A stretch of 64,000 nt of DNA from an uncultured Gemmatimonadota bacterium (GCA_951812955.1 OX638340.1:2240001-2304000), one strand, 5' to 3'; counted from the stretch's first letter, positions 10,381 to 19,076 are shown. The notes: generated by a model not told the origin, from the sequence alone. Numbers and translations: made by a program.

Positions 10381-11136
10381 ATGACTCCCCACGAAAGATA
10401 CCTCTTCGACCTGCAGGGTTTTATCGAGGTCCCGGACGCGTTGGACGCCGGGCAGCTCGCAGAACTGAACGGCATACTGGACGAGAAGATCGACGGGGCC
10501 ATGGCACCCGGCGCCACCACCCACCGATTCGGCTTCACCCTGCTCGACTGGGGACCAACCTACCGGGAACTGATCGACAATCCGCGGATAGATCCTTATC
10601 TGGAACAACTGATCGGTCCGAAGTACCGGCTGGACCACGATTATGCCGATATCATCCGAAAAGGCGACGGTCCAATCGGCACGACCCTCCACGGAGGCGC
10701 CATCCCCTTCGACCCCCTCTACTCCTACACCTGCACCAACGAAGAGATCCGTTGCGGCCTGACTGTGGTCGCCTACTACCTGAAGGACGTAAATCCAGGC
10801 GACGGCGGATTCGGCTGCGTGCCCGGCAGCCATAAGAGCAACTTCCGGTTCCCGGACGAGTGGCGCAACCTCAAGACCGACCAGCCCTTCATCCGCGCCG
10901 TAACCGGCAAGGCCGGCACCGCCGTCATATTCACCGAGGCCCTGACCCACGGCACCATGCCCTGGCACGGTGACGAGCGCCGCACCCTCTTCTACAAGTA
11001 CTCGCCCAATTCGATATCCTGGTACGCGGAATACTATGACGCCGACCGGTACGAAGGTCTGACGGAACGGCAGCAGGAGATCCTTGAGGCACCGAACGCG
11101 CGGTATGGAGAACGGTCTAAGCGTGGGGTTGTGTAG
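10381..11136 (+). CDS. phytanoyl-CoA dioxygenase (PhyH) family protein
   Basis: 251-aa ORF with PhyH-like motifs (TLHGGAIPFD, GFGCVPGSHKSNFRFP, TEALTHGTMPW). Confidence 0.8.
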   Translation: MTPHERYLFDLQGFIEVPDALDAGQLAELNGILDEKIDGAMAPGATTHRFGFTLLDWGPTYRELIDNPRIDPYLEQLIGPKYRLDHDYADIIRKGDGPIGTTLHGGAIPFDPLYSYTCTNEEIRCGLTVVAYYLKDVNPGDGGFGCVPGSHKSNFRFPDEWRNLKTDQPFIRAVTGKAGTAVIFTEALTHGTMPWHGDERRTLFYKYSPNSISWYAEYYDADRYEGLTERQQEILEAPNARYGERSKRGVV

Positions 11137-11214
11137 GTGGGCTTTACGGATAGACCAGTTGATATTACGACCACATTTATTTGCTCATTGATTTACTGTA
11201 TCTCGAGGTTACAA

Positions 11215-11505
11215 ATGGACGTTAAGGAAGCCGTAAGTACGGCCATAAAACATATTGCAGATGTATACTCGGAAGAGGGAATCTCGCATATTGGATTAGA
11301 AGAGGTAGAATACGACGAGATTAACTCACAATGGAACGTGACCGTTGGATTTGCACGTAAGTGGGACTTCCCTACTCCGGTTCTTATCCCCGTATTACCT
11401 TCACCAAGACCAAACCAAAGAACCTACAAAATCGTAGTAATTCGTGATAGAGACAAGAAGGTCACCGCAATGAAGATAAGGGATTTAGCTACGTCGAATG
11501 AATAG
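11215..11505 (+). CDS. small hypothetical protein (candidate antitoxin/partner of the PIN-like gene)
   Basis: 96-aa ORF starting at the ATG at 11215, preceded by gaggtt. Its stop overlaps the next gene's start by 8 nt (ATGAATAG). No recognisable DNA-binding motif. Confidence 0.45.
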   Translation: MDVKEAVSTAIKHIADVYSEEGISHIGLEEVEYDEINSQWNVTVGFARKWDFPTPVLIPVLPSPRPNQRTYKIVVIRDRDKKVTAMKIRDLATSNE

Positions 11506-11968
11506 TGTGCTTATAGATACGAATCTACTTGTCCTTTTGGTTGTAGGATCTACCGATAGAGAGTTTATTAGTCGACATAAACGCACAAAATCGTTCATAC
11601 CCAGAGACTATGACGAACTGACACGTCTGTTGTCGGGATCTCGTGAGTTATGGGTTACTTCTCACTGTCTGGCAGAGACATCGAATCTTCTGAAGCAAAC
11701 CGATAAAACAAAAGCACAGATCTTGTTACATACTCTTGCGGCCTACTGCGATATTGCCCGCGAATCGCATATTCCCAAAGAGACGGTATTTGGATACGAG
11801 AACTACCGCAGACTTGGCGTCACCGACACCGGCTTCATATACTCATCCGAAACAGTCTCTCGATCTATAACAGTAGATTTCAACTTGTACATCGAACTGA
11901 GTAACCTTGGCAGAGAAGTGATAAACTTCCACCACATCCGTGCTTCGTATCTCCAGAATGTCGATTGA
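11498..11968 (+). CDS. PIN-like nuclease domain protein (candidate toxin)
   Basis: 156-aa ORF with an N-terminal VLIDTNLLVLL motif and spaced acidic residues (CLAETSN, GVTDTG, TVDFN), consistent with a PIN-fold active site. Confidence 0.5.
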   Translation: MNSVLIDTNLLVLLVVGSTDREFISRHKRTKSFIPRDYDELTRLLSGSRELWVTSHCLAETSNLLKQTDKTKAQILLHTLAAYCDIARESHIPKETVFGYENYRRLGVTDTGFIYSSETVSRSITVDFNLYIELSNLGREVINFHHIRASYLQNVD

Positions 11969-12089
11969 CACGACGATCACACAGTTTTGCACATTCCAGT
12001 GCTTAGTTTTTGGTCAAGACCAACCTGTAGTTAAAACCAACCAATGGCCCTGAAGAAATCCCAAAATTTGGTAAACACTGCCAGGAGAG

Positions 12090-13034
12090 ATGCCACCTAT
12101 GCTTGACGAATTGGTTGGATGTATCGATGAACTTAAAGATCGTATTTCCAAATACCGAAACTCACTAAATGAGAACGAAACTCGTACTCGAATGCAGTTA
12201 ATAGATCCGCTGCTTCGTGTGCTGGGCTGGGACGTCTCCGATCCACGGTACGTTATCCCAGAATTCAAGGTGTCCGATGGTTGGGCTGACTATGCCTTAT
12301 TGCGGGATGATGGTAAGCCTGCTGCTATGGTGGAAGCTAAAAAACTGGACGAACCGTTAAAGCCCGCACACCGTGCTCAGATGTTGAAATACGCAATTGA
12401 GTTGGGTATCCCATACACTGGTTTGACAGATGGAAATCACTGGGAGTTGTACAATGTTTTCCAACCGGTACCTATGGAGGACAAACAGATCTTGGATGTT
12501 ACTTTATTGGATTCCCACTCCCACGAAAGTGCACTAAAGTTACTGCTGCTCTGGAATCCAAATCTAGACGCCGGCAGCGCGGTGAAAGCAAATGAACCTG
12601 TTCTCGTCGACACTCAGAATGGCGGTTCGATTCCTCCAATAATCGTTCCGCCACCATCGAACTGGAAGGCACTTTCAGATTACGAACCACCAGCAGGAAC
12701 ACCCGCACCTAAGGCTATTAGGCTTTGGGATGACTCAGAAAGAGAAGTGCATCATTGGTATGAAATTCTCACCATAGTAGCCGAAAAGCTCTACAACGAA
12801 AATGTCCTTACATTGGAACATATACCGATTCAATGGGCTAAAAAGACCTATAGTATTCACTCTCAACCAGTACATCCGACCGGCAACAAGTTTGAAAATC
12901 ATAAAGAAATCGGTAACTCGGGATTGTTCGTAAACGTAAATTTAAATACCGGTCAAGTACGAAATAACACCCGGAATCTACTGAAGAAATACAACATTGG
13001 TACAGAGAAGGTTTACCTCAAGGTAGCCGATTAG
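12090..13034 (+). CDS. HsdR_N-type PD-(D/E)xK nuclease-domain protein with an unknown C-terminal domain
   Basis: The N-terminal 130 aa match the type I restriction enzyme R-subunit N-terminal pattern: NENETRTRMQLIDPLLRVLGWD ... WADYALLRDDGKPAAMVEAKKL ... TDGNHWELY. The C-terminal 150 aa are unassigned. Confidence 0.6.
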   Translation: MPPMLDELVGCIDELKDRISKYRNSLNENETRTRMQLIDPLLRVLGWDVSDPRYVIPEFKVSDGWADYALLRDDGKPAAMVEAKKLDEPLKPAHRAQMLKYAIELGIPYTGLTDGNHWELYNVFQPVPMEDKQILDVTLLDSHSHESALKLLLLWNPNLDAGSAVKANEPVLVDTQNGGSIPPIIVPPPSNWKALSDYEPPAGTPAPKAIRLWDDSEREVHHWYEILTIVAEKLYNENVLTLEHIPIQWAKKTYSIHSQPVHPTGNKFENHKEIGNSGLFVNVNLNTGQVRNNTRNLLKKYNIGTEKVYLKVAD

Positions 13035-13447
13035 GTAGTTTCGTTGACCTACCATGTTGAGGAGTGATATTTCTTGATCTCCACAGACAAGGTTAAGGGT
13101 AAACCACAGCATACCTCCTCACTATCAGGCACGGTTCCTCAGTACGTTGAAGCGATATCAGCAACTCGCTAGCTAGCAGCTACCTGCCCCGTCGCATGGA
13201 ATACTGGGTACAAACCGTCTTTCACTTTAGTGGCGATTTGTTCACGGCTCCGTTCGTCAAATACAATTGAGCCCACTAATTCCACCTGTTTACCTCGACA
13301 AACAAGAGTACAGATCAATCACTTCGTATGACAAAACTCATTCAACTTCTATTCGAAATTGGAATCGGTGACCACCACTCAACCTCTGAATCGTGTGAGA
13401 CTGATGAAGATTCGCTGGTACATGGAAAGGATAATGGAGTGTAATTG

Positions 13448-15622
13448 ATGAATTCAACGTCTGAAGAAACCACCACCCGTCCCTGTTGGTTTGTGGGCGC
13501 CAGTTATTCTGGTACGGGCGATCAAACTGAGCGATTTCTCACGGAAGGTATCTGGGAGAACGGCTTCGACAACGATCATCCGGCCGTCGCGATGACCAAA
13601 ACCATTCAGCCCGGAGACCCAATCGCGATCAAGTCCGCCTACGTTCGCAAACACGACCTACCTTTTGACAGTCGCAACCAGTTCGTATCCGTAATGGCGA
13701 TCAAGGCCATCGGGACGGTTTTAGAGAACATCGGTGATGGCCATACCGTTAAGGTTAAATGGAATAAGGAGGTAACTCCGCGAGAATGGTATTTCTTTAC
13801 TAACAGAGGTACAGTTTGGAAAGTATCGCCTGGTAGTGACTGGTATTCCGACGCCCTGATCGGATTCGCGTTCGAGAACAAGCCGCAGGATATCGATCGT
13901 TTCTTAAAAGTGCCGTATTGGAGGGAGAGGTATCGAGGAGACACGCTCAATGATCAACGGTTTGCGTGGACGAGGTTCTACGAGGCCTTTGCGGATAAGC
14001 TGCTCACATATAGGAACAAGCGCTTAGACTTAATAAATGGTATACAAGAAATAGCTGCCAGAGAGTATGCCATGTTGGTTCTGAGGGATCAGTTTCGGGA
14101 CGGTACGATCGGTCCACTCAAAGACATATGCCCATTTACTACCATCGGATTGTTCAATAAGGGAATAACGAATAGCAATCGAAGATCAATTGCATCAGAA
14201 CTCGCTGAATTGCTGGGAGTGTCAGAGTCGGTTCCGGATTCATTCGATGGAATACCTGTTCTCAACAATCAGAATTCCTGGTTTTTTTCGTATGAAAAAA
14301 ACCGACGACCGGAAGATATTGAAATCCTTTGGAATGTTTACTCCCGTGCAATTGCCTTCGCTGATTCAGATGATTCCGATGCGCGATCTGCTTTCGTCTC
14401 TGCTTACGACGACGCATCCGAGGTTTCTCACGTAGGTTGGAAACTTACATTTGGGCTGTATTGGATACGGCCTTGGGATTTCCCCGTCCTCGACACGAAT
14501 ACCCGGCGTTACCTGGACAAGAAACTCAATATTGAGATCGGACTAAATGGACCGAAAAGGGGATACTGTAGTGCGAACGACTACCTGACGGTCCATGACA
14601 CACTTGAAAAGAGGTTTCTGGAGGACACATATCCGGTTCGTTCTTTTCCAGAACTAGCACGCGAAGCCTGGTTGTATAAGCCCGGTGACCCGGATCCCCC
14701 GCCAGATAGCGGTCTGGATCCCCCGCCACCACCTGTCCCTTATTCACTCGATGATATCGTGAAAGACGGCTGTTTCATTGCCAGAGATAAACTCGAGTCG
14801 ATACTCAATCGACTCCGTACCAAGAAAAACCTCATTCTACAAGGCCCTCCAGGAACCGGGAAGACTTGGCTCGCCAGGAAGTTGGCCTACGCTTTGATCT
14901 GTGAGCGAGACGAAAGCAAGGTTCGTTCGGTACAGTTCCATCCCAATCTCTCTTACGAAGATTTCGTACGTGGTTGGCGGCCGGCGGGAGATGGTAAACT
15001 TACGCTCGTAGATGGCCCCTTCATCGCCATAAGGGACGAGGCCGAAAAAGATCCTACTACTCGATACGTCTTGGTCATCGAAGAGATCAACCGGGGCAAT
15101 CCCGCACAGATTTTCGGCGAGATGCTGACATTGTTGGAGACCGACAAGCGAACTCCAGACGAAGCCTTGGAATTGGTTTATTCAAAGACTCCGGATGAGC
15201 GATTCTTTGTTCCTAACAATCTGTTTGTCATCGGGACGATGAACATTGCTGATCGTTCACTGGCACTTGTAGACCTGGCATTACGCCGTAGATTTGCATT
15301 TATCGATCTGGAACCTACCCTTGGCAAGACTTGGCGAGACTGGGTCCATTCTAAAAACGGGATAGATAACGAGACTCTCACCGAAATTGAGCATCGTATA
15401 GATGATCTGAACCGGACGATCTCCAATGATTCCGGTCTTGGCTCGCAATTTCGCTTGGGGCACAGTTATGTGACGCCGCCGTTTGAACAGCCGATTAAAG
15501 ATGGGAGAAAGTGGTACAGGGAAGTCGTTGAAACGGAAATTGGACCACTACTCGACGAATACTGGTTCGAAGACCTCGCGAAATCTAGAAACGCAAAAAA
15601 GAAACTTTTGGATGGTTTTTAG
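13448..15622 (+). CDS. mcrB: McrB-family AAA+ GTPase with a roughly 450-aa non-canonical N-terminal region
   Basis: Walker A ILQGPPGTGKTWLARKLA, FHPNLSYEDFVRGWRP, VLVIEEINRGNPAQIFGEMLTLLE and FVIGTMNIADRSLALVDLALRRRFAFIDL. ATG at 13448, 8 nt after GGAG. A proline-rich linker (PGDPDPPPDSGLDPPPPPVP) precedes the AAA+ module. Confidence 0.85.
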   Translation: MNSTSEETTTRPCWFVGASYSGTGDQTERFLTEGIWENGFDNDHPAVAMTKTIQPGDPIAIKSAYVRKHDLPFDSRNQFVSVMAIKAIGTVLENIGDGHTVKVKWNKEVTPREWYFFTNRGTVWKVSPGSDWYSDALIGFAFENKPQDIDRFLKVPYWRERYRGDTLNDQRFAWTRFYEAFADKLLTYRNKRLDLINGIQEIAAREYAMLVLRDQFRDGTIGPLKDICPFTTIGLFNKGITNSNRRSIASELAELLGVSESVPDSFDGIPVLNNQNSWFFSYEKNRRPEDIEILWNVYSRAIAFADSDDSDARSAFVSAYDDASEVSHVGWKLTFGLYWIRPWDFPVLDTNTRRYLDKKLNIEIGLNGPKRGYCSANDYLTVHDTLEKRFLEDTYPVRSFPELAREAWLYKPGDPDPPPDSGLDPPPPPVPYSLDDIVKDGCFIARDKLESILNRLRTKKNLILQGPPGTGKTWLARKLAYALICERDESKVRSVQFHPNLSYEDFVRGWRPAGDGKLTLVDGPFIAIRDEAEKDPTTRYVLVIEEINRGNPAQIFGEMLTLLETDKRTPDEALELVYSKTPDERFFVPNNLFVIGTMNIADRSLALVDLALRRRFAFIDLEPTLGKTWRDWVHSKNGIDNETLTEIEHRIDDLNRTISNDSGLGSQFRLGHSYVTPPFEQPIKDGRKWYREVVETEIGPLLDEYWFEDLAKSRNAKKKLLDGF

Positions 15623-16743
15623 TGGTGAATGGCCCAGTAGTTAGTACGGCTGACGAGACGATCGAACAGGCCGGGTATATCGGTCGTATCCCTTTACGAA
15701 ATATCTGGCTGCTCATGCTTTACGCCTCTGACCTTTTCAGGCAACTTGATGCGTCTGAATACCGCTCCTTCGAAGATAATCCTGATGACCTGCCCGATCT
15801 GGTTGCCGAGATCCTATCACATGAAGTCGAACGTCGACTAAAGCGAAATCTGAGTTACGGCTACCAATACCGTAACGAAGTGCTCGGACGGGTTCGCGGA
15901 CGTATCGACCTTTTACAAACCGAAGCTCATCAACTACTGCAACGCGGCATGGTCGCCTGTCGATTCGACGAACTGACAATCGACACACCGAGGAACAGGT
16001 ACGTTCGATCCGCCCTCGAGATGATATCCAAATATGTTCGTCGAAAAGACCTGGCTCACCAGTGCAGGTCCCTCGTTGGAAGCCTTAGGCGACAGGGAGT
16101 CGTTGGAGAACGACCTGGGCGTGAGGTGACGTCAGTTGAGCGATACGGTAGACATGACGCTGTTGACCGCAAGATGGTGGATGCGGCTCGTCTTGCCTTC
16201 GAAATGGCCATTCCGACCGAGCAGACCGGTTCCAGGCACCTTCCACTACCGGACCGTGATATAAACTGGATTCGCAGACTCTATGAGAAAGGCGTTGCAG
16301 GATTCTATGATGTGGTACTTTCCAGAAGGGGATGGAATGTGTATCCGGGAACGATTCTCAGATGGCCCACGACAGTCAGAAGTCCGCGAATAGACGGGAT
16401 ACTACCCTCCATGCGGACCGATATTGTGTTGGATCATGTTGACGAAGGCCGACGGATCGTTATAGACACGAAATTCAACTCGGTTTTGTCGAGAGGTTGG
16501 TATCGAAATGAAGGGATACGAAGCGGATACATGTACCAGATCTATGCTTACCTTAGGTCGCAGGAAGAGAGTGGTGATCCGCTTGATTGTAATGCAGAGG
16601 GAATGTTTCTCCATCCGTCGGTTGGTGAGATGTTCAACGAATGGGTAGATATTCAGGGTCATCGGATCCACTTCAATACCGTTGATCTCGCAACCGATAC
16701 ACAGACCATCAGATCGCAGTTGTTGGATGCGGTGAAACCTTAA
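15622..16743 (+). CDS. mcrC: McrC-family nuclease subunit
   Basis: The GTG start overlaps the mcrB stop (TAGTG). C-terminal PD-(D/E)xK motif MRTDIVLDHVDEGRRIVIDTKF followed by YQIYAYL. Confidence 0.75.
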   Translation: MVNGPVVSTADETIEQAGYIGRIPLRNIWLLMLYASDLFRQLDASEYRSFEDNPDDLPDLVAEILSHEVERRLKRNLSYGYQYRNEVLGRVRGRIDLLQTEAHQLLQRGMVACRFDELTIDTPRNRYVRSALEMISKYVRRKDLAHQCRSLVGSLRRQGVVGERPGREVTSVERYGRHDAVDRKMVDAARLAFEMAIPTEQTGSRHLPLPDRDINWIRRLYEKGVAGFYDVVLSRRGWNVYPGTILRWPTTVRSPRIDGILPSMRTDIVLDHVDEGRRIVIDTKFNSVLSRGWYRNEGIRSGYMYQIYAYLRSQEESGDPLDCNAEGMFLHPSVGEMFNEWVDIQGHRIHFNTVDLATDTQTIRSQLLDAVKP

Positions 16744-16834
16744 ACTGACTTTGCTCTCGACATAGTCGTTCCACCAGCCCATTTCCCGCATCCGTTTGGT
16801 GTGTTCGGCAGCTTCGGTAATCTCAAGATTTGAC

Positions 16835-17761
16835 TCACCCCGCCTTCCTGAAGACCTCGAAACGACGGTCCAGCCGGTCCTGGTCCGGATGGTCACGGGT
16901 GCGTGAAGGCAGGTGCAGTCCCGATCCGTCCAGTTGCTTGAGGGCCTGGAGCATGGGACCGTCATCCTTGTCCAGCAGGCGGTCGGATACGTGCAGCCGG
17001 TAGTCGGGATCAATGCCGATCAGGTGGGCGTCAAAGGCCGCATGATGAATCTTGGACAGGGCCAAGCCGTTGGGTACGACGGGTTGTCCCAATGCCTCGT
17101 CGCCATCGGCAATGATGTGGGCGGCATCCAGTAACTGCGTTTCCGGTAGGCCGGTAATGGCACAGCGGCCGCGATAGGCGTGAAGGACAGCCTCGCGGAA
17201 CGTGGCTTGGTGGAGTCGTTCCTTGACCATGCGCAGGGCATACCGCCGCTCTACCGCGTTAATCGGAGCTTCCATCTCGGCCTGGTTGGGGTTCCCAAAG
17301 GCAAGCGTGGACTTGAGCGCGAATCCATCCCAATTGGAGATGAAGGTGGGAATGATCGCCTGATACCGGCTGGGAGACACACCGAGAAAGTAGATCACGG
17401 GAATCTGATTCTCCCAGGCAACCTTTAACCACTGGTTGTCTGCTGCTGCCGGGTCCTGTCCCATGAAGGCGTAGTCCACGGAATCGTTGCCCTCGAAAAT
17501 CTGGCTGTGGACCTGCTTTTGGTCGTCGTACCAGACTCGGCCGCCCGGTCTGGGGTACACGGTCCTGATCGAGAGAAGGTACCGCATCCGGCGCGGCTTG
17601 AATATGCCCCGCTGCGGATTGACAAGGGGGATCCTTTCGCCTTCGAATACGAACCCCGGCGCCAGTTCGTCCCTCGTAAGGTGGCCATGGGTTTCACTCA
17701 GCCGCCGCACGTGATCGAACGCGGCCATCCGCATCCTCGGATCTCGGTCGTCGACGTTCAT
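16835..17761 (-). CDS. HNH endonuclease (HNH_2-type) with an N-terminal putative DNA-reader domain
   Basis: C-terminal half has RGRCAITGLPETQLLDAAHIIADG ... NGLALSKIHHAAFDAHLIGIDPDY. The N-terminal 170 aa are unassigned (GIFKP, VWYDDQ, YAFMG motifs). Confidence 0.8.
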   Translation of the reverse strand: MNVDDRDPRMRMAAFDHVRRLSETHGHLTRDELAPGFVFEGERIPLVNPQRGIFKPRRMRYLLSIRTVYPRPGGRVWYDDQKQVHSQIFEGNDSVDYAFMGQDPAAADNQWLKVAWENQIPVIYFLGVSPSRYQAIIPTFISNWDGFALKSTLAFGNPNQAEMEAPINAVERRYALRMVKERLHQATFREAVLHAYRGRCAITGLPETQLLDAAHIIADGDEALGQPVVPNGLALSKIHHAAFDAHLIGIDPDYRLHVSDRLLDKDDGPMLQALKQLDGSGLHLPSRTRDHPDQDRLDRRFEVFRKAG

Positions 17762-17770
17762 CTCAGTCCT

Positions 17771-18733
17771 TTACCCCCGGTAAATCCTCTCATTGTGCCA
17801 GGATAGTACTTCGGTGGACGGCTGGTCCACCGCATTCCTGGGAACGACAATCTGTTTCCCGTGCAAAGAGTAGTAATCGCGCCCGTTCTCGAATTCCTCC
17901 CGGACCTGTCCGCTGACCTCGAAGTGCAATTCAGGGGTCACCGTTACGTATCCGGAATCGAACAGCCCGTGGATGTCGCGCCTTAGCAGCAGTCCGTTCC
18001 TGGCTTCGTGGATGCCCCCTTCGCTGTAGGGACGGATGTGCGCGGCATCAAGGGCCGGCAGCGTCCGTTCGCGGGTAACTGCGCAACGGCGGTCGTAAAG
18101 GTCGGTTACCAGGGCCCTGAAAGCACCTTGACCGAGACGCGGTTTGACCAGTTGCGGTTTGCCGTAAAGGGTTTGCCCGGCCAGGAGGCCTGAGGGTTCG
18201 GCCACGATGCCGGCAGGATTTGCAGATACACTGGTTGGCTGTCGGAATTCCAAACGGCCGTTGACTGCGTCCCACAATGCCCGTCCGTCTGAGTCACCGG
18301 TACTAAATGTCTTTAGTGACACGATGTTCGGCGACCATGTCGACGGCACATCGACAAACTCGGATGCCTCGAAGAAGAAGGGTTGGGTAAGGATCCGGCA
18401 GCCAATCTTGTAATCGCTCGGCTCACGTGGGTCAACATTACGGTAACGTGAGATACGATTTCGCATTTCCTGCAATGTCTCGGCACCGTTGGCTTCCCCG
18501 AATGCTTCCCATGCAAGGGAACAAGGCATCACATTGGCATAGGCAAAAACGCCGCCGCCAACGATTACGTTGTACGGCGCGTGTAGCTTGAAGAGGAACA
18601 GTTCACCGGGCTGAAGTGCCTTGAAGTTCGTGCCAGAAGGCGCCCAGAAGTTGACCTCCTCCAGGTGCGGCTTCTGCCGGAGAGTCTTGAACCAGTCCCC
18701 GTCGGTCACGGCAACGACCAGCTTGATGTCCAT
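17771..18733 (-). CDS. HNH endonuclease (HNH_2-type) with a different N-terminal domain
   Basis: RRCAVTRERTLPALDAAHIRPYSEGGIHEARNGLLLRRDIHGLFDSGYVTV. The N-terminus MDIKLVVAVTDGDWF ... EVNFWAPSG ... GELFLFKL is unrelated to that of the neighbouring HNH gene. Start chosen at the ATG at 18733. The gene ends 9 bp before the next HNH gene. Confidence 0.8.
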   Translation of the reverse strand: MDIKLVVAVTDGDWFKTLRQKPHLEEVNFWAPSGTNFKALQPGELFLFKLHAPYNVIVGGGVFAYANVMPCSLAWEAFGEANGAETLQEMRNRISRYRNVDPREPSDYKIGCRILTQPFFFEASEFVDVPSTWSPNIVSLKTFSTGDSDGRALWDAVNGRLEFRQPTSVSANPAGIVAEPSGLLAGQTLYGKPQLVKPRLGQGAFRALVTDLYDRRCAVTRERTLPALDAAHIRPYSEGGIHEARNGLLLRRDIHGLFDSGYVTVTPELHFEVSGQVREEFENGRDYYSLHGKQIVVPRNAVDQPSTEVLSWHNERIYRG

Positions 18734-19076
18734 AGCGCGAATTCCGGTAAACTTTGGTGCTATTGGGATACAGGCAGATCCGATCAACGGACAACCGCAA
18801 CCGTGCGTCTCGCTGATCGAGCCTTATCATCTAAAATAAAAGACGGCAACCATGGCAGGTCAAGTGCCGCCTGTGCGACCCGGTTTTTGACGTTTGGAAC
18901 ACAGAACGAGTGCTTCCAGATTGCCTTGACCAAATGTACCTGTTAGTTTACTGAACGTTGGTACACTTGATCTCATAAGTTATCAGGAGATTACGAGCGA
19001 GTAGTGAAAGGAACGATTCATATCTTATGTTGTGTAATTTAAATCATATATCGGAAATAGTACATAGGGGAGTTGT

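Follow-up and report, generated by a model that had tools for sequence, protein, structure and literature searches.

The 64,000-nucleotide stretch of DNA analyzed here (the window; uncultured Gemmatimonadota bacterium, OX638340.1:2240001-2304000) contains an mcrB-mcrC gene pair. Its McrB protein lacks the N-terminal 5-methylcytosine reader of E. coli McrB (EcoKMcrB; DUF3578/'ADAM', about 160 aa) and has instead about 430 residues comprising an EVE-like barrel (module 1) and a helical domain of the Pfam family DUF8425 (module 2). The locus is interpreted as a GTP-dependent type IV anti-phage McrBC system that would restrict modified DNA, with recognition by the EVE-like reader and by DUF8425, and the probability of this interpretation was estimated at about 0.6. 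The features of the gene pair are listed in Table 1.

Identification of the McrBC system

Analysis of the C-terminal part of the McrB protein revealed a complete McrB motor. The Pfam AAA_5 model matched residues 461-616 (E 4e-27), and the NCBIfam model of E. coli McrB (PRK11331) matched only residues 431-721, which correspond to residues 167-456 of EcoKMcrB (E 1.7e-76); the whole-protein score was 257.8, under the cut-off of 637. Similarly, the EcoKMcrB structures 6ut6, 7vsr and 6hz4 were found in a PDB sequence search to match only residues 425-721 (E ~5e-74), and McrB of T. gammatolerans was matched more weakly. A precomputed match to the McrB_lid family (PF28529) was found on an identical copy of the protein and on its relatives. 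The motifs of the motor are intact, namely Walker A (GPPGTGKT, residues 466-473), Walker B (VIEEINRGN, 543-551), the GTPase signature N599-I-A-D602 (NxxD) and RRRF (613-616). The mcrC product was matched by the Pfam McrBC model (E 2.2e-22) and by the NCBIfam equivalog model of E. coli McrC (395.5 bits versus a cut-off of 338), and it contains a PD-(D/E)xK-type motif (D267 ... D282-T-K284).

The mcrB open reading frame (ORF) is open from position 13445/13448, with a TTG one codon 5' of the ATG at 13448, and a ribosome-binding site (GGAG) was found 9 nt 5' of this ATG. The GTG start codon of mcrC overlaps the stop codon of mcrB, and the two genes are a translationally coupled, co-directional pair filling positions 13448-16743. 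In public data, a protein 100% identical to the window McrB (P0001) was found on a 3.8-Mb NCBI contig. Relatives of the window McrB are encoded in 460 genomes in a scan with one genome per species, and the best 80 of them, which show 50-64% identity to it, belong to Nitrospirota, Chloroflexota, Desulfobacterota, Spirochaetota, Planctomycetota, Cyanobacteriota, Actinomycetes, Gammaproteobacteria and other groups. A mcrC homologue lies directly 3' of mcrB in 74 of these 80 loci, and the contigs of the remaining six end in or just after mcrB. The apparent absence of mcrC from one syntenic relative (L001) was ruled out, as an uncalled mcrC with 83% identity was located there using tblastn. When residues 1-415 of McrB were used as a query, at least 1,237 protein clusters were retrieved, including those of Kiritimatiella glycovorans (60% identity) and Pseudomonas aeruginosa. 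The coverage of the N-terminal region by so many homologous clusters and the position of mcrC directly 3' in relatives mean that mcrB is not a chance ORF.

The scores of the core and of McrC, the intact motifs and the adjacency of mcrC in the relatives make it nearly certain that the locus is a genuine, functional-looking McrBC, as had been proposed in an earlier note made from the sequence of the window. Like EcoKMcrBC, it is a two-gene operon with a homologous AAA+ core bearing Walker A/B, NxxD and Arg motifs, an equivalog-level McrC with a PD-(D/E)xK motif, and a reader tethered N-terminally to the motor.

Organization of the N-terminal extension

The homology of the window McrB to E. coli McrB begins at about residues 425-431. 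The long two-part extension described in the earlier note is real, and the peptides quoted there are present in McrB; its length, however, is about 430 rather than 450 residues, and residue ~470, given there as the start of the AAA+ core, corresponds to Walker A. The Pro-rich linker was likewise recognized correctly, with its limits now placed at 14678-14746 instead of 14681-14750.

Residues 1-~430 matched no Pfam model, including that of the E. coli McrB N-terminal family, and no PDB sequence, even when profiles were used; for residues 1-415, no Pfam match was found even at E<=10. Searches of Pfam, NCBIfam and PADLOC with the whole McrB and with each half revealed nothing besides the AAA+ core, and no significant match came from a phmmer search of the PDB or from profile searches with the full, module-2 and module-1 alignments and with a motif fragment of 81 residues. 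The families PF28527 (DUF8425) and PF28529 are newer than the local Pfam copy used in these scans. A precomputed PF28527 match was present on P0001 and on all its close relatives. In addition, PF28527 is the only match on the protein P0124, which has module 2 twice but lacks both module 1 and the motor; this identifies DUF8425 as the helical module and leaves module 1 with no Pfam model.

An AlphaFold2 model of residues 1-445 was built on 70 homologues and had a mean predicted local distance difference test score (pLDDT) of 85.8 and a predicted template modeling score (pTM) of 0.80. It contains a beta-rich module with three helices, an all-helical module with one beta-hairpin, and a disordered tether. 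The tether and residues 1-7 were the only low-confidence parts (pLDDT <50). The pTM of this two-module model suggests that modules 1 and 2 pack as one unit.

In the model, the strands of module 1 lie within residues 13-126 and its three short helices within residues 132-162, and the predicted structure has the PUA-like beta-barrel fold. No entry for the E. coli McrB N-domain was among the 60 best matches of module 1. As a barrel and a predicted reader, module 1 fits the description of this region in the earlier note as a small beta-barrel reader module. Module 1 is very probably a divergent member of the PUA/EVE/YTH superfamily and a reader of the PUA/EVE type, judging by the modeled fold; this fold class is the commonest one used by type IV enzymes for binding a flipped modified base (PMC7641849, PMC7897488).

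Table 1. Features of the mcrBC gene pair (positions in the window)
Feature	Position	Strand	Description
mcrB	13448-15622	+	724 aa from ATG; McrB-family AAA+ GTPase with a bipartite N-terminal extension of ~430 residues
Module 1	13475-13942	+	Residues ~10-165; divergent EVE/PUA-like beta-barrel; predicted modified-base reader
Module 2	13955-14683	+	Residues ~170-412; helical, Pfam DUF8425 (PF28527); predicted DNA/modified-base recognition module
DICPFT motif	14123-14140	+	Residues 226-231; most conserved element of DUF8425
HVGWK...RPWDFPVLD	14429-14494	+	Residues 328-349; hairpin, helix, Pro loop and Asp; HhH-GPD-like by eye
Pro-rich flexible tether	14678-14746	+	Residues 411-433, KPGDPDPPPDSGLDPPPPPVPYS; from sequence and pLDDT <50 at residues 416-429
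McrB AAA+ GTPase core and lid	14738-15619	+	Residues ~431-724; NCBIfam PRK11331, PDB matches, motifs, PF28529
mcrC	15622-16743	+	373-aa predicted nuclease/activator subunit; GTG start

Distribution and architectures of DUF8425

To describe the family, the module-2 profile was searched against 1.84 billion cluster representatives. DUF8425 was found in 2,432 clusters (50% identity) at E<=1e-3 and in 867 clusters at E<=1e-30. The top 150 representatives were dominated by McrB proteins, and AAA_5 was present in 56 of 60 sampled DUF8425 proteins. The architectures of the top 149 representatives were then classified with local hidden Markov models for module 1 (d1), module 2 (d2) and the motor. The arrangement of the window protein, d1-d2-motor, was found in 21 proteins and, with a further insert, in 14 more. 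Module 2 stands alone before the motor in 18 proteins (d2-motor), is separated from it by an insert in nine (one of the inserts checked was Mrr_N) and is preceded by another N-terminus in nine. Tandem copies (d2-d2-motor) were present in five proteins plus four with an insert, and the reversed order d2-d1-motor in three plus one with an insert. Many short proteins consisting of d2 only were also found, which are probably fragments.

Further arrangements were found in individual genera. In Rhodococcus, module 2 occurs without module 1 and follows a different N-terminus of ~130 aa; in Clostridium butyricum, module 2 is followed by Mrr_N and then by the motor; and in Deinococcus, DUF4357 precedes module 2. 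Conversely, a tblastn search of plasmids revealed 472-aa McrB proteins of Paracoccus, Agrobacterium and Rhizobium, encoded next to mcrC, in which module 1 alone precedes the motor, and this mirrors the reader-plus-motor layout of E. coli McrB. Modules 1 and 2 are evolutionarily separable, as judged from the homologous sequences. The gene pair, its motifs, the domain boundaries, the fold of module 1 and the distribution and shuffling of both modules are direct results of the analysis.

Since DUF8425 occurs as the sole appendage of the motor, in tandem, and in swapped order or with different known readers as partners, it behaves like a specificity module and not like a fixed linker. DUF8425 probably functions as an autonomous DNA-recognition module. 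The architecture is common rather than a one-off, with 460 species genomes and thousands of clusters, and its novelty is lower than the earlier note implied.

Several DUF8425 loci deserve a separate description. At L009 (5001-6953), the gene for the 650-aa protein P0124 follows those for a 1,862-aa AAA_22/nSTAND1 protein and for a 405-aa product without a Pfam match, and in this setting DUF8425 may serve other NTPase-based systems too. On a Parabacteroides distasonis plasmid (L090, 3998-5482), a DUF8425-like N-terminus (27% identity over 77% of module 2) belongs to a 494-aa protein with the annotation 'FRG domain-containing', a non-McrB context; the same DUF8425-FRG fusion was found in Bacteroides finegoldii and Phocaeicola (Bacteroidales plasmids). 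On a plasmid of Deinococcus sp. NW-56 (L003, 4001-4645), an in-frame stop occurs in a McrB-like gene at the conserved Trp of DUF8425 (...RSA*FFGY...) and the gene is annotated as two coding sequences, a DUF4357 protein and an AAA ATPase; a pseudogene or a sequencing error is the probable explanation. In Kiritimatiella glycovorans (CP010904.1; L002, 6001-8201), the alignment of the McrB homologue shifts to another frame for the final ~43 residues and the annotated protein (702 aa) has no McrB_lid match, which together suggest a frameshift near the 3' end. In 11 relatives (L028, L036, L037, L040, L041, L044, L046, L056, L066, L071 and L082), the alignment to the window McrB ends at about residue 411 and mcrC begins 1.0-1.4 kb later than usual. 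These proteins appear to have an extra insert between DUF8425 and the motor, fitting the d1-d2-X-motor class, the inserts of which mostly have no Pfam match.

Conserved motifs and possible fold of DUF8425

The second region was described in the earlier note as unlike the E. coli McrB N-terminal domain, and this was borne out: it is DUF8425 and has no match to the E. coli N-terminal family. No paper mentioning DUF8425 was found in the literature search, and the Pfam entry gives no function. The DICPFT motif is conserved almost throughout the 149 domain instances (P229 in 149, F230 in 146, D226 in 145 and T231 in 142). A second conserved region consists of predicted helix 310-324, a hairpin, helix 332-340, a loop R-P-W-x-F-P-x-L and an Asp opening helix 350-358, an arrangement that by inspection resembles the HhH-GPD signature. 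The hairpin has the consensus G-V-G-W-N (HVGWK in the window; V329 in 66/70 and G330 in 52/70), P342 is present in 148/149 instances, and position 349 is occupied by D in 132, by E in 11 and by N in three. The spacing from the hairpin to the Asp equals that of E. coli EndoIII within one residue, a motif match made by eye and having no statistical support. At the position of the lyase Lys of EndoIII/OGG1, Asn was found in 102/149 instances and Lys in 29/149, the latter including the window protein (Lys332); the catalytic Lys of bifunctional glycosylase/lyases is not conserved in DUF8425.

Residues 128-415 were also modeled separately (pLDDT 90.8, pTM 0.87). In a Foldseek search with module 2, Ogg of S. 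solfataricus, Ogg of M. jannaschii and many OGG1 entries came first, and about 20 of the top 25 matches were Ogg/EndoIII proteins. The best match of module 2, a weak one, is to the Ogg2/OGG1/EndoIII glycosylases, with which it appears to share about ten helices and a helix-hairpin-helix (HhH) element that leads, at a comparable distance, through a loop containing Pro to a conserved Asp. In contrast to these enzymes, module 2 contains an additional beta-hairpin and a long loop, does not conserve the lyase Lys, and is fused to a restriction motor with no repair context; no sequence similarity between them was detectable and the template modeling (TM) scores were below 0.4. Kinship with the 8-oxoG-binding PG1037 of P. 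gingivalis was considered and rejected, because the paper names McrB once and outside the passages on the PG1037 protein.

The same enzymes were cited in a 2025 bioRxiv preprint on END nucleases, type IV-like defense enzymes which restrict phages with diverse hypermodified bases (PMC12191111). Recognition by END was ascribed there to a C-terminal inactivated EndoIII/Ogg1-like domain ('iEndoIII'), whose structural neighbors are archaeal Ogg, hOGG1 and D. radiodurans EndoIII, and the sensor was reported to be fused also to NucS-like nucleases and McrB-like GTPases, the McrB fusion being given there with no experimental test. The top structural matches of DUF8425 are the enzymes cited for the END sensor, and because of these shared neighbors DUF8425 is a good candidate, on the modeled structure, for the McrB-fused END-type sensor. 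In END proteins, by contrast, a PLD or NucS-like nuclease is on the same chain as the sensor. No PLD nuclease was present in any of the 60 sampled high-scoring DUF8425 proteins, and a tblastn search of plasmids with module 2 returned only McrB-type ATPases and an FRG-domain fusion, with no PLD nuclease.

Evidence against the proposed reading

A number of results count against a link of module 2 to the HhH-GPD glycosylases or weaken the interpretation in other respects. The Pfam EVE model (PF01878) did not match the window module 1 and matched only one of 26 family members, at E 0.61; the best PDB profile match of module 1, the EVE-family protein MJECL36 (2p5d), was not significant (E 0.22), so the module is EVE-like by fold alone. 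None of the Foldseek matches of module 2 was significant (best E 0.19, probability 0.51, TM 0.28-0.37). Profile and fragment searches of the PDB with module 2 gave no matches at E<=10, and a Pfam scan of 19 DUF8425 members at E<=10 found neither HhH-GPD (PF00730) nor the OGG-like family (PF21790). Alignment of the module-2 family with E. coli EndoIII (MG1655) by hhalign revealed no relationship, a weak test given the single-sequence template. The END sensor was described as having no catalytic residues (PMC12191111), while DUF8425 retains the Asp. The literature search found no experimental data on any family member. DNA binding, moreover, does not follow from a position as the sole N-terminal domain, since some McrB-like systems use separate DNA-binding subunits.

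Because no sequence method ties DUF8425 to any glycosylase, its descent from the HhH-GPD glycosylases was given only about even odds; as a proposal from the structural models, it is a lead and not a result. The uncharacterized specificity that the earlier note suggested for this McrB holds: DUF8425 is catalogued with no function and has a weak likeness to Ogg/EndoIII, and no end-to-end alignment of the extension with a characterized McrB reader was found in the Pfam and PDB sequence and profile searches.

The weakness of the glycosylase resemblance, which is statistically poor and has no sequence support, also favors an alternative in which DUF8425 is a structural or regulatory module of the motor and specificity is set by module 1 alone. 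Such a module could, for example, be a spacer that places the true reader, mediate oligomerization or autoinhibition, or dock McrC or a phage-derived trigger. The near confinement of DUF8425 to McrB proteins, as expected of a motor accessory, and the apparent packing of the two modules as one unit fit this explanation. However, it would leave the many McrB homologues with DUF8425 as the sole or tandem N-terminal domain with no recognizable DNA-targeting module. Moreover, DUF8425 is found after or before module 1 or together with Mrr_N or DUF4357, in the manner of interchangeable readers, and it also occurs outside McrB, fused to the FRG domain. We consider such a structural or regulatory role rather unlikely.

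A different possibility is that DUF8425 is an active HhH-GPD-type glycosylase which excises modified bases and makes abasic sites, within or besides cleavage by McrC. In 143/149 instances, D or E occupies the site that corresponds to the catalytic Asp of HhH-GPD enzymes, which follows the conserved Pro-containing loop, the lyase position is Lys in the window protein (K332) and in ~20% of the family, and antiphage glycosylases have precedents in Brig1 and Brig3 (PMC13160076). On the other hand, the fold assignment is uncertain, the Asp may merely cap a helix, the Lys position is Asn in most members, and the only published relatives of this proposal, the END nucleases, were described as inactivated (PMC12191111). 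In addition, the nuclease motif of McrC is retained, which makes a second chemistry unnecessary. Such an activity appears improbable, and slightly more so the specific proposal that an HhH-GPD-derived glycosylase or covalent base-trapping module is built into the McrB motor. If the latter were true, the excision of hypermodified phage bases, or the formation of abasic sites there, would be coupled in thousands of McrBC systems to loading driven by GTP and to cleavage by McrC. Such a hybrid 'restriction glycosylase-translocase' mechanism is undescribed for any type IV enzyme.

It was also considered whether the target could be modified RNA, as proposed for the CoCoNuT-type relatives of McrBC, given that YTH and some EVE domains bind RNA. 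The GTPase signature of the window McrB, NIAD, is nevertheless the canonical NxxD and not the NxD of the RNA-linked clade (PMC11090510), and the core and McrC are close to those of E. coli McrBC. The window McrB differs from the proteins of that clade also in having no coiled-coil fusion, and a Pfam scan detected no coiled-coil, cold-shock or other RNA-binding domain in it. The neighboring genes, furthermore, encode DNA-directed restriction-type nucleases. An RNA target is therefore very improbable, and DNA is retained as the target in the proposed reading.

Genomic context of mcrBC

The G+C content was 45-49% over positions ~11,000-16,000 of the window, 53% over 16,001-17,000 and ~60% in the flanks. 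The low-G+C stretch takes in two small ORFs, an Mrr-like gene and most of mcrBC, and the HNH genes described below are closer to the genome average. Together with the patchy phyletic spread, the low G+C content indicates horizontal transfer of mcrBC; these data point to its acquisition from elsewhere, which is usual for defense genes. No tRNA, Rfam family or repeat was found marking the borders of the island.

The mcrBC pair is surrounded by a restriction-type gene cluster (window 11137-18787). Located 5' of it is a gene for a 314-aa protein with an HsdR_N/Mrr-like N-terminus (12090-13034). Directly 3' of it, on the minus strand, are genes for tandem HNH_2 proteins (16835-17761 and 17771-18787), whose HNH halves are 29% identical and whose N-terminal halves are unrelated; one HNH resembles that of VcaM4I. 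Both HNH genes are kept beside mcrBC in the close relatives L001, L010 and L032. A comparison of module 1 with the N-terminus of the neighboring HNH protein by hhalign revealed no relationship. The locus may thus combine several modification-dependent nucleases that differ in their readers.

At the left edge of the low-G+C stretch (11137-11968), two small ORFs of 122 and 156 aa overlap by 8 nt. The 156-aa ORF starts with MNSVLIDTNLLVLL, a beginning that resembles the N-terminus of a PIN-type toxin. Neither ORF had a Pfam or PADLOC match, and they may represent a toxin-antitoxin pair.

Comparison with known McrB proteins and proposed mechanism

Fusions of EVE to McrB are already known, as are DUF8425, included in Pfam without a function, and an Ogg/EndoIII-like sensor on McrB, mentioned in the preprint. 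EVE-McrB is recorded as the most frequent EVE architecture, 'with additional domains often present' (PMC7641849). Surveys covering EVE fusions and the diversity of McrBC did not describe the helical DUF8425 domain. Module 1 differs from the EVE domains of the EVE-McrB fusions and EVE nucleases, such as the EVE-HNH protein VcaM4I (PMC7641849, PMC7897488), in that it escapes the Pfam EVE model, and for this reason it was probably outside the survey sets. The N-domains of archaeal McrB proteins, YTH-like in T. gammatolerans (6p0g) and PUA-like in Staphylothermus marinus (6n0s), are distant structural relatives of module 1 with 6-14% identity; these proteins have a single reader and no DUF8425.

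The ligands of both modules, the descent of module 2 from HhH-GPD enzymes and the entire biochemistry we infer from these comparisons. By homology with E. coli McrBC, for which the core mechanism was derived from structures (PMC7680126, PMC6344862), McrB would form a GTP-bound hexameric AAA+ ring, into which McrC would insert and stimulate GTP hydrolysis. The PD-(D/E)xK site of McrC would cut the DNA once the complexes are loaded on marked DNA. Recognition would be supplied by six two-module heads, each on a flexible Pro-rich tether of ~20 residues. The analogy to VcaM4I, to THYN1 and to the N-domains of archaeal McrB proteins suggests that the barrel of module 1 would take a flipped-out modified base into a pocket.

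Since some other McrB proteins have nothing but DUF8425 N-terminal to the motor, this domain most likely recognizes DNA by itself. Our best guess is that it may be an Ogg/EndoIII-derived, non-catalytic or weakly catalytic base-flipping sensor paralleling the 'iEndoIII' of END nucleases. As a second surface, it could extend the range to bulkier modifications or work jointly with the barrel. Acting together, the two modules would either widen the spectrum of modified foreign DNA subject to restriction or define it more sharply.

Significance

The N-terminal domains of McrB proteins decide which modified DNA a cell destroys, and phages diversify their base modifications to escape. DUF8425 is among the commonest modules on McrB motors. 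The window locus is an ordinary member of this family, and its value is that of a representative test case and not of a unique object. If DUF8425 is an Ogg/EndoIII-derived sensor, as the work on END nucleases suggests for a related fusion, it would provide new modification-specific binding domains for epigenomic tools. In that case, the marks recognized by a considerable fraction of McrBC systems may be bulky or purine hypermodifications instead of methylcytosine, and tandem-reader McrB proteins like that of the window would be broad-spectrum.

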